IMG/VR virus record: IMGVR_UViG_646311924_000013
Direction: 5' to 3' (one strand)
DNA length: 38,725 nucleotides
DNA from: a virus
Lineage: Duplodnaviria > Heunggongvirae > Uroviricota > Caudoviricetes
Below are positions 3,001 to 6,000 of the stretch, piece by piece. Every line of letters begins with the position of its first letter. Position 1 is the first letter of the stretch. Made by a program: the position numbers.

Positions 3001-6000
3001 GAGCAATTAATCAAGGAAGCCAAATTAAAAATAGCGGTTGCGAACTGTTACCCTAATTCAGAGATGGCCAGGGTAGAGGGTGAGCTATTCAAAATTGCAC
3101 TGGCATCGCTGGAAGCAGAACCGATAGCGTGGGAATGCGGTGAAAACATAATCCTGTTTAACCCTGACACAGTTGAAGCATACGCAAAACGTGCGGAAAT
3201 ATCACCTAAACCACTATTCTCCGCGCCGCCAGCGCTGGTAGTGCCTGATAAGTTGCCGCGTGAATACAGAAACGGTTGGCCTCTTGCGTATAGTGATTAT
3301 GCTGAAGGCTGGAACGACTGCCGCGAAGCCATGCTTCAGGGAGATAAATCATGATTAATCGTATCAAGCTGGAGCACATCCTCGAATATGCCAGGCAGCA
3401 GAGGCATATTGGTCAGCATTGTAAAATTCCACCAGGAGATATGGTTGAAATCATGGAGATTGCCATGCGCAAGGCTGGCAATTCTCCGGTAACTCCGGAT
3501 GGTTGGATAAGCTGTAGTGAGCGAATGCCGCCAGTTGGTGTTGATGTACAACTGTTTGTGTCCAGCACGGGTGAACAGTTTACAGGTTTTAACCTGGATA
3601 ATACGGGTGACTTCCAGTATGCGCAGTGTTTCGGTGCGCCCATCGTGTGTGAAGCCACACACTGGATGCCGCTACCAGAACCGCCGAAGGAGGTGCGCCA
3701 ATGAGCTGGCCTGAAGCCTTCTCAAATGTTGGTATTGCAATGGCGGTGGCGCTGGTTGTGTATTCGATTTGCCGCTGGGGATAATTTGCTGAAAAAAGAT
3801 CCCGACACACACATGAGTCGGGGATCTTTGATTTATATAGCCTACGAATCCGCCAGTAAGAGAGGGGGCGGACGGTTTATTCTAATACTGGAATTATGTG
3901 GGGAAAAGTTTATAAGAAATCGGTTTCATAACTTTGTCCGCCATGATAAATACCTGCGATAAAGACTTTATTGCCATCAACGGCAAAAGCAATAATCGTT
4001 CTGTGGCGGAAGTGAGTTACCCGCATTCCCTGTCGAATATCATCGCGTTTATTGCCCCGATGCGGGAATGTGGAAAACCCATCAAGATAATCAAGAAGTG
4101 CATTGGCATAATTGTCAGCAATGACGCTCCCTGCTTTCTCCGTTATATATCTGTGCAGGTTGATTATCTGCTGTTCGGCCTCAGGAGTAATGATGACTTC
4201 ATATGTCATGCAGATTACTTCCCGGCTCGAATCGCGGCGCGAACCTGTGAAATGGAGCGTCCGTTGTTTGGGTTTTCGCGGATAGAATCGAGAGATGGGG
4301 CGGCTGAATGCGTTAACCACGCTTCGATTGCTTTATCGCGCTCATTCAGTGCGCGAAGCCCTTCACGAATGACCTCACTTTCTGAAGCATAGGCACCGGA
4401 AGCCACACGGGCGCGCACCATGTCAGCCATCTCGTTAGTTAATGTAATGCTGAATTGTTGGGTTGTACGCATGGTAAACCTCCCGGAGTAGGATAGAACA
4501 CTATTCGATGATAGCACACTGCCTGTTGACGACAACAGAAATCAGATACAATATTGCCGCACGCCAGCCTGAACAACTGGCACCTGCTGCGCCAGCAGAG
4601 ACAACCGATGGCGCACGATACCAGATTTTACAATTCGGATAACTCCGCCGCCCCTGCCAGCAGGCATGGGCGGCGTTCTCATGCATTCAAATCTGACTGG
4701 TTCCAGCATGACCCATGCACTGAAGAACAGGCCGAATGGCTGATCCAGTGCTACCGCAGACGTGGTTACGAGTTTCAGAAAGATCTCAGTTTCTATCGTC
4801 GTCACTGGATAATCTCTGTCAGGCTCCCTTATTCCGAATGCCCACCGCGTCCGTCCCGCACATTCCAGCAGCGCATCTGGAGGTAACGTGCGGGTATTAC
4901 TTCGACCTGTTCTGGTGCCGGAACTCGGGATGGTGGTCCTTAAGCCGGGCCGTGAATCAATGTCAGCATTCCATAACGGCAGAATATTGGTGGAGCCGGA
5001 ACCGAAAAACATGCGCGGTCTGCCGTCCGGAGTCGTTCCCGCCGTTCGCCAGCCGCTGGCAGAGGATAAAACATTACTGCCATTTTTCAGCGATGAGCGG
5101 GTTATTCGTGCTGCTGGTGGTGCTGGTGCACTGTCTGACTGGTTATTACGTCACGTGAAATCCTGCCAGTGGCCACACGGCGATTATCATCACAGCGAAA
5201 CGGTCATTCACCGTTACGGTACCGGCGCGATGGTGTTGTGCTGGCACTGCGACAACCAGCTGCGCGACCAGACATCAGAATCACTCGATCAACTTGCTCA
5301 GCAGAATCTGGTTGCCTGGATGATTGATGTCATCCGTCACGCAATAAGCGGTACGCAGGAGAGGGAGTTATCGCTGGCCGAATTATCCTGGTGGGCGGCC
5401 TGCAATCAGGTGGTGGATGCACTACCTGAGGCAGTAGCGCGTCGTTCGCTGGGATTACCGGCGGAAAAAATCCGCTCCGTATACCGTGAGAGTGACATCG
5501 TACCGGGAGAACAGACAGCCATCAGCATACTGAAGCAGCGCACAAAAAATATTGCGCTGCCACTTCACGTCCACCAGCAACAAAATCCACCACAGAAAAA
5601 AACGGTTGTCAGTATCGCCGTTGATCCGGAGTCTCCTGAATCGTTCATGAGGCGGCCTAAACGTCGCCGTTGGGTTAATGAGAAATACACGCGCTGGGTA
5701 AAGACACAGCCGTGTGCGTGTTGTGGTAAGCCAGCTGACGATCCGCATCACCTGATTGGTCATGGTCAGGGGGGAGTGGGAACAAAGGCCCACGATATTT
5801 TCACGCTACCGTTGTGCCGGGAGCACCACAACGAACTTCATGCAGACCCGCTGAAGTTTGAGAAAAAGTACGGCTCTCAGGTTGAGTTAATTTTTCGTTT
5901 TCTTGATCACGCCTTTGCGACTGGCGTGCTCGGGTAAAAGAGGTGACTGATGCTCATAGATTTGGTTTTACCTTACCCGCCGACGGTGAACACTTACTGG

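Follow-up and report, generated by a model that had tools for sequence, protein, structure and literature searches.

A probable ParD-ParE toxin-antitoxin operon opposed to the phage genes of a defective lambdoid prophage

Introduction

Two neighbouring genes that run against all their phage neighbours raise the question of what they encode, how they are controlled and why they persist. They lie in the window analysed here, namely the whole 38,725-nt stretch of the virus record IMGVR_UViG_646311924_000013 (Caudoviricetes). The original prediction read them as a minus-strand ParD/ParE-like toxin-antitoxin pair and as the only convincing minus-strand genes of the record. RefSeq annotation of an identical record agrees, as the two are the sole intact minus-strand genes in 38.7 kb and the only other feature on that strand is a 144-nt pseudogene fragment (8986-9129). 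ParE toxins are gyrase poisons that trigger the SOS response (PMC11925232, PMC10899753). Toxicity cannot be taken for granted in this family, as P. aeruginosa ParE1 (PaParE1) is essentially non-toxic, and the determinants of gyrase binding in ParE are not known (PMC11925232).

The pair is already known: it is named in RefSeq, both proteins have families in PHROGs, and it is annotated as a toxin-antitoxin system in ArgO145, an inducible phage that carries it. No experiments on the parD-parE pair were found in the searchable literature. The analysis describes a real but ordinary toxin-antitoxin cassette. Very probably, it is an intact type II ParD-ParE operon that resides in a defective lambdoid prophage as an autonomous "moron", equipped with a promoter and a terminator of its own.

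Architecture of the minus-strand operon

All the sequence-level statements of the original prediction about the genes hold. On the minus strand, the antitoxin with its ribbon-helix-helix (RHH) domain comes first, and its TAA stop (4217-4215) is separated by a 5-nt gap (tctgc) from the toxin ATG at 4209 (Table 1). The predicted GGGAGG ribosome site is likewise in place. The proposed limits, 3792-4535, fared unequally: the left one is sound, being the end of the U-run 3' of a hairpin, whereas the right one is merely the mechanical TTG start of a long open reading frame whose real start is at 4472. The layout is that of co-transcribed genes, with a single promoter, a single terminator, the 5-nt gap and a toxin Shine-Dalgarno (SD) sequence inside the 3' end of the antitoxin gene. 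The gene pair stands far beyond chance, given that curated HMM cut-offs are passed and dN/dS is 0.06-0.2.

Table 1. Features of the minus-strand cassette and its flanks, in window coordinates
Feature	Position	Strand	Details
parD-type antitoxin gene	4215..4472	-	85 aa; identical to RefSeq WP_001260976.1
Shine-Dalgarno GGGAGG, antitoxin	4479..4484	-	read from sequence; 6 nt before ATG
SD-like GGGAAG, toxin	4218..4223	-	within the last codons of the antitoxin gene; 8 nt before toxin ATG
parE-type toxin gene	3910..4209	-	99 aa; identical to RefSeq WP_000220602.1
Hairpin	3795..3829		core GAUCCCCGAC...GUCGGGAUC; A3 and U6 flanks; RNA fold
Predicted sigma-70 promoter of the operon	4508..4535	-	consensus scan; 9/12 matches, with TG
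Degenerate operator palindrome (putative)	4488..4504		minus strand ATAGTGT-TCT-ATCCTAC; between -10 and SD
Inverted repeat CTGTTG-ACGA-CAACAG	4523..4538		seen in sequence
Divergent promoter-like site TTGACG-18 nt-AATATT	4526..4555	+	scan match; faces the 92-aa hypothetical gene 4608-4886

There is no third minus-strand gene between 4472 and the divergent gene at 4608, nor between 3910 and the terminator. An open reading frame of 27 codons (3701-3784), which opens the block of homology common to ArgO145, was considered as a third component and rejected, because it occurs mostly without the toxin in the 93 phage records that have it (e.g. 933W, Min27, BP-4795) and because the Salmonella and Yersinia loci lack it. 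An Rfam scan of 3000-5500 returned nothing real, so that no small RNA overlaps the pair here. Additionally, the base composition of the cassette resembles that of its flanks (GC 0.44-0.52), and hence there is no compositional "moron" signature.

Identity of the antitoxin and the toxin

At the level of sequence, the family of the antitoxin can be regarded as settled by curated HMM matches. The profile search that had been proposed as a check exceeded the cut-offs of both Pfam ParD_antitoxin PF03693 (32.1 bits against 21) and TIGR02606, the CC2985 type (54.1 bits against 46.2). The protein has an N-terminal RHH domain at residues ~5-50, and its C-terminal ~35 residues are presumed to form the toxin-binding tail. 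Its best solved relatives in a PDB sequence search are ParD1 (3kxe, E 4e-4), ParD (7ycv/7b22/8c24) and ParD3 (5ceg/6x0a), and it falls in PHROG 6494, "antitoxin" (E 1e-56). Moreover, dN/dS against E. coli, Salmonella and Yersinia alleles is 0.06-0.21. A ParD-like gene (MRTTQQxSITLP...) precedes the toxin at 16 of 17 distant loci, frameshifted in one, and the pairing of toxin and antitoxin is conserved across Proteobacteria.

The toxin likewise passes the cut-off of its profile, Pfam ParE_toxin PF05016 (40.0 bits against 23, over profile positions 1-89 of 89), and matched no model in NCBIfam. The profile searches support the original reading of the pair. The AF2 model (pLDDT 89.2) has the topology beta-alpha-alpha-beta-beta-beta, with strands at 4-7, 62-67, 71-78 and 81-89 and helices at 9-26 and 28-46, in keeping with the ParE fold, in which a helical hairpin at the N-terminus packs against a sheet of three antiparallel strands. 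In a Foldseek search of the PDB, ranks 1-22 are all ParE toxins (TM 0.75-0.83), among them ParE3, PfiT, PrpT, MtParE1, VcParE2, PaParE1, O157 ParE2 and CcParE1, while RelE, YoeB, YafQ and HigB rank below every ParE at TM 0.43-0.64. The anticipated ParE/RelE fold is therefore borne out, in agreement with the RefSeq annotation. As the toxin shares only 13-22% identity with ParE toxins of known structure, the target is assigned through the fold family, by which the toxin is probably a gyrase poison. The protein belongs to PHROG 5232, "toxin", and to a family of 2436 clusters at 50% identity; its core motif FPxRGNxRDDIRxGxRxTHF is kept, and dN/dS against E. coli, Salmonella and Yersinia alleles is 0.06-0.10.

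Promoter, operator and terminator

The predicted operon promoter combines a -35 box TTGTCG (4535-4530), a 16-nt spacer and a TG-extended -10 box TATCAT (4513-4508); the scan was no richer than shuffles (2 sites in the region against 1.5 expected), and the promoter is a prediction only. The TGcTAnnAT element is kept in the Salmonella and Yersinia homologues. Across the family, 13 of 17 distant loci with homologues contain a palindrome, GTAGGATT-N-AATCCTAC, exactly once each, against a chance expectation of 0.55 matches in 171 kb. It overlaps the -10 and ends 21-33 nt upstream of the antitoxin start codon, and it is also present upstream of kluA on the IncP-1beta plasmid pB8. The best match in the promoter of the window falls at 4488-4504, where the right arm is perfect and the left arm agrees at 4/7 (11/14 arm positions); a direct repeat, AGTGTGCTATC (4520-4510) and AGTGTTCTATC (4502-4492), overlaps it. 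Judged by these matches, this palindrome is the likely candidate for the ParD operator, although its degenerate arm counts against it.

The original prediction had drawn attention to another element, the inverted repeat CTGTTG-ACGA-CAACAG in the likely promoter, with the implication that it serves as the operator. The repeat is present, overlaps the predicted -35 and is kept in E. coli and Salmonella copies, but an operator role is unlikely. Its outer pair is lost in ArgO145 and its left arm is broken in Yersinia similis, in both cases without compensatory changes; its conserved right arm is TTGACG, which in relatives, with TATATT 18 nt away, makes up the isrK promoter on the opposite strand; and the element conserved family-wide is the other palindrome, adjoining the SD. 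An inverted repeat of 6+6 is not improbable in itself in a promoter region of ~100 nt (an estimated ~0.2-0.3 expected). The repeat is best read, on sequence grounds, as two -35 boxes placed back to back, with TTGTCG serving parDE on the minus strand and TTGACG the divergent promoter on the plus strand. TTGACG-18-TATATT is kept in ArgO145 and at a Salmonella (L006) and a Yersinia (L013) locus despite a diverged spacer, and isrK (RF01394) and C4 (RF01695) lie downstream of it in all three. By the same comparison, the site at 4526..4555 appears as a remnant of the isrK sRNA promoter that adjoins parD in relatives; isrK itself was sought in the window by the Rfam scan of 3000-5500 and was not found.

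The hairpin at 3829-3795 is the intrinsic terminator of the minus-strand operon. It folds at -18.8 kcal/mol (z = -3.0), an equally stable fold arose in 1 of 200 shuffles, and it is kept in ArgO145. Owing to its placement between convergent genes, it is probably bidirectional. A consensus terminator scanner missed it, probably because of its bulge and long loop.

Prophage context and distribution

A lambdoid prophage riddled with IS elements in E. coli strain E2863 matches the window at 100% identity, and the other matches at 100% are O111 strains. The prophage is a defective lambdoid one, decayed by IS1203 and IS1 insertions and frameshifts, with parD-parE intact; within its early-right (nin-like) region, the pair is transcribed against the phage genes. 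The toxin was found in 327 of 5426 complete E. coli genomes (~6%), always chromosomal and never on a plasmid, and the antitoxin accompanies it in 327 genomes. Among the sampled records, the Shiga-toxin-producing strains with the pair are O111 and O113:H21. In 5/5 sampled genomes, including an Stx2 prophage (L027), the locus is upstream of the DUF968-RusA-Q genes. The original prediction placed the pair where Qin-type prophages carry relBE, and rightly so: in Qin, relB-relE-hokD-rem is directly upstream of ydfU, the equivalent of the DUF968 gene of the window (4888-5937, protein 85% identical to YdfU). The same prophage slot also holds hok/sok in relatives.

Furthermore, there is an orphan ParD lineage, represented by 63 Stx2a-phage records and about 37 E. 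coli genomes, in which the toxin is lost after codon 5 while the promoter and the antitoxin are kept. All of its substitutions (11/11) are in the C-terminal tail, and the RHH domain (residues 1-47) is unchanged. The orphan ParD of PA2-type Stx2a phages is WP_001260980.1.

Function and alternative explanations

The proposed mode of action is modelled on the ParDE family of RK2, Vibrio cholerae, Mycobacterium tuberculosis and Caulobacter. ParD dimers would bind DNA through the N-terminal RHH and repress the operon, the likely site being 4488-4504, and the C-terminal tail of ParD would wrap and neutralise ParE. If ParD synthesis stopped, because the prophage segment is lost or deleted or because transcription is shut off, proteases would remove ParD, and free ParE would then poison DNA gyrase, leading to double-strand breaks, SOS induction and filamentation. 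The net effect would most likely be addiction, by which cells deleting the prophage segment are penalised. Addiction would help explain the intact pair in a prophage otherwise broken by IS elements and frameshifts; its selective value is uncertain, since an integrated defective prophage is rarely lost.

A RelBE-like pair as in Qin, its toxin being a ribosome-dependent mRNA endonuclease of the RelE type, is highly improbable. PF05016 spans the whole RelE/ParE superfamily, the RefSeq name of the toxin goes no further than "RelE/ParE family", the slot is that of Qin relBE, and M. tuberculosis RelE2 (3g5o) is still matched (E 6e-4, TM 0.64). However, 22/22 top structural matches are ParE at TM ~0.8, compared with 0.43-0.64 for the RelE, YoeB, YafQ and HigB structures; the sequence lacks BLASTP similarity to K-12 RelE; the partner antitoxin passes TIGR02606 as a member of the ParD family, and no RelB match is listed for it; and the nearest named relatives are ParDE-type plasmid stability pairs. 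A domesticated or selfish remnant, with a weak or inactive toxin and ParD mainly kept as a DNA-binding regulator, would agree with the orphan lineage, where the toxin is lost and the RHH domain is unchanged, and with the existence of non-toxic ParE proteins (PMC11925232). The intact toxin gene of the window under strong purifying selection (dN/dS 0.06-0.10), the retained core motif and the co-occurrence of both proteins in 327 genomes make this decidedly unlikely.

Protection of the lysogen from superinfection by abortive infection, rather than prophage stabilisation, is quite unlikely as the main role. The pair is indeed a moron expressed by the lysogen, its prophage slot is variable and in relatives also carries hok/sok, and toxin-antitoxin systems are cited among abortive-infection mechanisms (PMC10732053). 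On the other hand, neither protein matched any of the 5027 defence models of PADLOC-DB v2 (0 families at E <= 1), and the searchable literature yielded no account of phage defence by ParDE. Type II antitoxin half-lives, that of ParD included, are about an hour, which is long for a lytic cycle and counts against an anti-phage role. In addition, activation of a gyrase-poisoning toxin-antitoxin system induced lambdoid prophages without aborting phage production (PMC10899753). Very unlikely, too, is a cassette wired into lambdoid prophage biology instead of being a passive addiction module. As the cassette is antisense within the early-right operon, antiterminated transcription towards Q must cross the terminator and parE-parD. 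Such read-through during induction could silence the operon and release the gyrase poison; SOS would be amplified by it, and Stx prophages resident in the same cell would be cross-induced. On this reading, the ParD copies retained without toxin by many Stx2a phages might act as anti-addiction or immunity factors against the toxin.

Significance

The pair carries little weight as a discovery, since names exist in RefSeq, PHROGs and ArgO145 and the family is very large. Its modest practical interest is that Shiga-toxin-producing E. coli carry a probable gyrase-poisoning toxin in their prophages. Lambdoid prophages are induced when toxin-antitoxin systems of the gyrase-poison type are activated (PMC10899753). 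In E. coli population genomics, acquisition of ParDE-family loci, which may or may not include the prophage pair, was linked to later quinolone-resistance mutations (PMC10575684). By-products possibly useful for subfamily work are the operator palindrome shared across the family, the lineage of orphan antitoxins and the connection with the isrK-C4-ant module.

Comparison with known toxin-antitoxin systems

Qin RelB-RelE of E. coli K-12 occupies the same slot, a short way ahead of ydfU (the DUF968 gene) and Q, and has a hok-type system beside it, as do some ParDE copies. Qin relBE is co-directional with the phage genes, whereas the prophage ParDE pair is opposed to them. RelE is an mRNA interferase, and RelB comes from another antitoxin family than ParD. 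Membership in RelBE is contradicted by an antitoxin that matches ParD/RHH profiles only and by RelE-type structures ranked below all ParE; BLASTP of the toxin against K-12 RelE gave no alignable similarity (E 1.7). PaaR2-PaaA2-ParE2 of the cryptic prophages of E. coli O157:H7 (5cw7/5czf) likewise places a ParE-fold toxin in a lambdoid prophage (TM 0.78-0.80). Hallez and colleagues reportedly described it in 2010 as a three-component system in which PaaA2, an intrinsically disordered antitoxin of non-RHH type, is accompanied by PaaR2 as a distinct regulator. The prophage pair, in contrast, consists of two genes with a classical RHH ParD and no third gene, at 17-18% toxin identity, and so falls outside the three-component PaaR-PaaA-ParE group.

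ParE-family toxins of other prophages include ParESO-CopASO of Shewanella CP4So, reported to maintain the excised prophage (PMC8706911), and PfiT-PfiA of Pseudomonas Pf4, reported to limit phage production (PMC7264888). They differ in antitoxin and phage type; PfiT is among the best structural matches of the toxin (9w3a, TM 0.79-0.81). The RK2/RP4 ParD-ParE and the solved chromosomal ParDE systems have two genes with the antitoxin first, as here. The solved systems compared were Caulobacter ParD1-ParE1 (3kxe), Mesorhizobium ParDE3 (5ceg/6x0a), V. cholerae ParDE2 (7r5a), M. tuberculosis ParDE1 (8c24) and P. aeruginosa ParDE1 (6xrw). They have in common with the prophage pair an RHH antitoxin with a C-terminal neutralising tail, its RHH region alignable to ParD1, ParD2 and ParD3, and the ParE fold (TM 0.75-0.83). 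The prophage pair differs in its carrier, a lambdoid prophage and not a plasmid or superintegron, and in a toxin identity of only 13-22%.

Among named relatives, KluA/KluB of IncP-1beta plasmids (e.g. pB8, AJ863570) stand closest, with 47% toxin identity; their annotation reads "KluA regulatory protein / plasmid stability protein". The N-terminus of KluA, MRTTQQLSITLP, is nearly the same as that of the prophage antitoxin, and the palindromic element ATAGGATTGAATCCTAT is found upstream of kluA as in the wider family. KluA/KluB is plasmid-borne with an intact palindrome, whereas the E. coli prophage clade shows a diverged left arm; the klu genes overlap (ATGA), whereas the prophage genes are separated by their 5-nt gap.

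Operon Layout and Family Assignment

The minus-strand cassette is an ordinary two-gene system from a huge toxin-antitoxin family. Its operon anatomy, its family and fold, the selection on both genes, and the conserved pairing of toxin with antitoxin are all shown directly. As originally predicted from the sequence alone, the antitoxin gene carries a GGGAGG ribosome-binding site and is followed on the same strand by the toxin gene, the gap between antitoxin stop and toxin ATG being 5 bases (tctgc). An SD-like GGGAAG inside the final codons of the antitoxin, 8 nt ahead of the toxin ATG, suggests that translation of the two genes is coupled. 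Beyond the toxin lies a hairpin with a fold of -18.8 kcal/mol (z = -3.0; 1 of 200 shuffles equals it), which is probably bidirectional because an A-run lies on its other side and convergent genes flank it. The inverted repeat CTGTTG-ACGA-CAACAG was likewise found where it had been placed, in the likely promoter, overlapping the predicted -35. The right limit first given to the cassette, 4535, is merely the TTG start of a mechanical ORF.

Coordinates of the cassette and related features (window positions unless a locus is named)
Feature	Position	Strand	Remark
Antitoxin ORF, 85 codons	ATG 4472 to TAA 4217-4215	-	Minus-strand reading of 3600-4800
Antitoxin SD GGGAGG	4484-4479	-	6-nt spacer before ATG
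Toxin ORF, 99 codons	ATG 4209 to 3910	-	Minus-strand reading of 3600-4800
Hairpin and U-run ending 3792	3829-3795		About 80 nt beyond toxin ORF
Predicted promoter	-35 TTGTCG 4535-4530; TG-extended -10 TATCAT 4513-4508	-	16-nt spacing; consensus scan
CTGTTG-ACGA-CAACAG	4523-4538		Inverted repeat
Candidate operator copy	4504-4488		ATAGTGT-TCT-ATCCTAC
Putative isrK promoter remnant	4526-4555	+	All that the window retains of the isrK-C4-ant module
Unannotated 27-codon ORF	3701-3784	+	MSWPEAFSNVGIAMAVALVVYSICRWG
Pseudogene fragment, 144 nt	8986-9129	-
OspG-family effector kinase	37576-38166	+	Cargo at tail-fibre end, IS remnants on either side
IS damage and broken genes	1-888, 12487-13700, 36701-37400, 25059-25361, 28382-29079
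parD-isrK-C4 divergent loci	L002 (ArgO145) 5861-6043; L006 (Salmonella) 3462-3648; L013 (Yersinia) 3458-3643; L004 (Stx2a phage LC727840) 2867-3049
Orphan ParD	L004 2520-2777; L028 (E. coli WG5::PA2) 2501-2758	-
hok/sok-type loci and extra 117-aa ORF beside ParDE	L025 (E. coli SCU-171) 2806-2980, 3087-3440; L006 2589-2739	+, -; -

The predicted ParD and ParE identities hold in profile searches. The antitoxin scored 32.1 bits against Pfam ParD_antitoxin (cut-off 21) and 54.1 bits against NCBIfam TIGR02606 (cut-off 46.2), and its closest solved relatives by sequence are the ParD antitoxins 3kxe, 7ycv, 7b22, 6x0a, 8c24, and 5ceg. The toxin matched no NCBIfam model and scored 40 bits against Pfam ParE_toxin (PF05016; cut-off 23), covering the full profile. 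As PF05016 includes both ParE and RelE branches, the toxin was modelled from an alignment of 23 homologues (pLDDT 89.2) and searched against the PDB. Ranks 1-22 were all ParE toxins (TM 0.75-0.83), namely Mesorhizobium ParE3, Pseudomonas PfiT, Pseudoalteromonas PrpT, Mycobacterium tuberculosis ParE1, Vibrio cholerae ParE2, Pseudomonas aeruginosa ParE1, O157 ParE2, and Caulobacter ParE1, whereas RelE, YoeB, YafQ, and HigB structures ranked below them (TM 0.43-0.64). BLASTP of the toxin against K-12 RelE found nothing. An exhaustive profile search returned 2436 clusters at E <= 1e-3 (745 at E <= 1e-10), which makes the pair a single branch within a very extensive family.

Both genes are under selection. 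For the toxin, Nei-Gojobori comparison of the window allele with other E. coli copies and one Salmonella copy gave dN/dS values of 0.06-0.10; for the antitoxin, where a Yersinia copy was compared as well, the values were 0.06-0.21. A ParD-like gene (MRTTQQxSITLP...) lies directly upstream of the toxin in 16 of 17 other-species loci (one frameshifted), from genera including Paraburkholderia, Polynucleobacter, Pantoea, Scandinavium, Winslowiella, Dyella, Bordetella, Desulfovibrio, Yersinia, and Salmonella.

Carrier Prophage and Distribution

The 1-kb region of the pair is 100% identical to E. coli O111 and related chromosomes, such as strain E2863 (NZ_AP018802.1). The matching 38,725 bases are annotated as a lambdoid prophage with nearly all genes on the plus strand: early genes and then DUF968, RusA, and Q; a methyltransferase and a tRNA; and lysis, terminase, head, tail, and tail-fibre genes with an OspG-family effector kinase gene. 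True to the original prediction, the pair supplies the only intact minus-strand genes, the sole other minus-strand feature being a pseudogene fragment. The prophage is defective: it is disrupted by two IS1203 copies and one IS1, and a number of its genes are frameshifted or truncated. One IS1203 copy splits a lysis-region gene, the IS1 copy is frameshifted, tail assembly protein T is truncated, and minor tail protein L is frameshifted. At the left end, IS1203 stands where the integrase and immunity region would be expected.

Near the cassette, the unannotated 27-codon ORF would encode one hydrophobic helix; it overlaps the stop of a DUF551 gene (ATGA) and has GGAGG upstream. It looks coding because it differs from the ArgO145 copy by five synonymous and three conservative changes and carries an in-frame two-codon deletion in one E. 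coli copy. It was rejected as part of the cassette, as 93 phage records (933W, Min27, BP-4795, and others) carry it, mostly without the toxin.

Among 5426 complete E. coli genomes, the toxin gene was found in 327 (333 places) and the antitoxin gene in 364, all copies being chromosomal. Five genomes from different backgrounds were sampled, one of them (L027) an Stx2 prophage. In each, the pair occupies the opposite strand, with variable early genes on one side and, on the other, DUF968, RusA, and Q preceded by a short hypothetical gene (phrog_1212 type). In ArgO145, an inducible Stx2a phage, and two related phages, the cassette is integrase-proximal, early-left, and beside isrK-C4-ant, with 93.7% nucleotide identity to the window and 96% amino acid identity in the toxin. 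The RefSeq record of ArgO145 (NC_049918) calls its antitoxin from an internal Met (5514-5720, minus strand, 68 aa); the complete ORF has 85 codons, is preceded by its SD, and extends to 5771 in a layout identical to that of the window.

A toxin-less lineage, seen in 63 records of Stx2a phages and in about 37 E. coli genomes, keeps the promoter and antitoxin (86-87% nucleotide identity). Here the toxin reading frame breaks off after codon 5 (MAYEVPH*), and in its place stand a lipoprotein-like ORF (WP_000049984.1), which has no Pfam hit, and a HigA-family antitoxin that is apparently an orphan. Residues 1-47 of the orphan ParD, which form its RHH domain, are identical to those of the window protein, and all 11 substitutions fall in the toxin-binding tail. 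It could serve as an anti-addiction or anti-defence factor, or as a repressor put to new use.

Regulatory Region

Alignment of upstream regions across distant loci revealed a 17-bp palindrome, GTAGGATT-N-AATCCTAC, ahead of the antitoxin start. In 13 of the 17 loci it is present as a single copy, each time ending 21-33 nt from the start codon, against 0.55 chance matches expected in the 171 kb scanned; the same palindrome lies upstream of kluA on plasmid pB8 (L029, about 398-414). Its conservation ahead of this ParD subfamily spans Burkholderiales to Desulfovibrio (L007-L020 series, about 20-45 nt ahead of the antitoxin start) and takes in IncP-1beta plasmids. In the 13 loci, a TAGGAT -10 hexamer falls within the left arm, with a TTGACA-like -35 lying 17 nt before it; the palindrome is thus placed like a classical autorepression operator. 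The palindrome is a candidate operator of this ParD subfamily, for which no description was found in the literature searched. The N-terminal strand of the antitoxin is nearly unchanged (TTQQFSITL in distant loci, TTQQMSITL in the window). Copies in the E. coli/Salmonella/Yersinia prophage clade retain an intact right arm, ATCCTAC, at an unchanged distance from the SD, but their left arm has diverged; the window copy agrees at 11 of 14 arm positions. The promoter of this clade seems to have shifted upstream, to the TG-extended TATCAT.

The inverted repeat is disfavoured as the ParD operator. Although intact in E. coli and Salmonella copies, it has lost its outer pair in ArgO145, and in Yersinia similis the left arm is disrupted with no compensatory substitutions. 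The constant part is the right arm on the opposite strand (TTGACG) with TATATT exactly 18 nt off, also where the spacer has diverged. In ArgO145, in a PA2-type Stx2a phage, and in Salmonella and Yersinia, this divergent promoter is followed by isrK (RF01394), C4 (RF01695), and an antirepressor gene. The parD and isrK promoters of these relatives share overlapping -35 boxes. The repeat is thus best explained, as far as sequence comparison goes, as two back-to-back -35 boxes, one from an isrK promoter remnant. An Rfam scan of 3000-5500 found no isrK in the window, where homology to ArgO145 stops around 4543-4560, about where IsrK would begin, and the divergent -10 reads AATATT against TATATT in relatives.

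Proposed Role and Comparison with Known Systems

By analogy with characterised ParDE systems, ParD dimers would repress the promoter of the pair and the C-terminal tail of ParD would neutralise ParE. Once ParD synthesis stops, ParD would be degraded, and freed ParE would trap gyrase, leading to double-strand breaks, SOS, and filamentation, as described for ParE toxins (PMC11925232, PMC10899753). The net outcome is most likely host addiction to this prophage segment, which fits an intact pair within a heavily decayed prophage. The toxin might possibly be inert, like the known non-toxic PaParE1 (PMC11925232), but the strong constraint on its gene speaks against this. A role in abortive infection is less likely and finds no support here: PADLOC matched neither protein, published single-cell work put the onset of type II toxin action no earlier than about an hour, and a gyrase-poison toxin-antitoxin system induces lambdoid prophages without blocking phage production (PMC10899753). 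Addiction also has reported parallels, as the prophage ParE systems ParESO-CopASO (PMC8706911) and PfiT/PfiA (PMC7264888) maintain or regulate prophages.

The pair is already known as ParD/ParE in RefSeq ('type II toxin-antitoxin system ParD family antitoxin', WP_001260976.1; 'RelE/ParE family toxin', WP_000220602.1), in PHROGs (antitoxin, phrog_6494; toxin, phrog_5232), and in the ArgO145 GenBank record; no experimental study of it was found in the searched literature. Beyond annotation, the present analysis adds a candidate operator palindrome found across the family, a new reading of the inverted repeat, the lineage of Stx2a phages with an orphan antitoxin, and the link to the isrK-C4-ant module.

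The nearest plasmid relatives are KluA/KluB of IncP-1beta plasmids (47% identity), which carry the annotations regulatory protein and plasmid stability protein. Among prophages, the predicted match to the relBE slot of Qin is borne out: in K-12, ydfU and a Q homologue come right after relB-relE-hokD-rem, and YdfU is 85% identical to the DUF968 protein of the window. Type I hok/sok loci (Rfam sok, 105-115 bits) adjoin ParDE in some prophages, like relBE-hokD in Qin, and the slot thus collects toxin-antitoxin modules. In SCU-171, a 117-aa ORF without a Pfam hit also follows the toxin directly on the same strand. The relBE genes of Qin and the window pair differ in orientation, the former being co-directional with the phage genes and the latter opposed to them.
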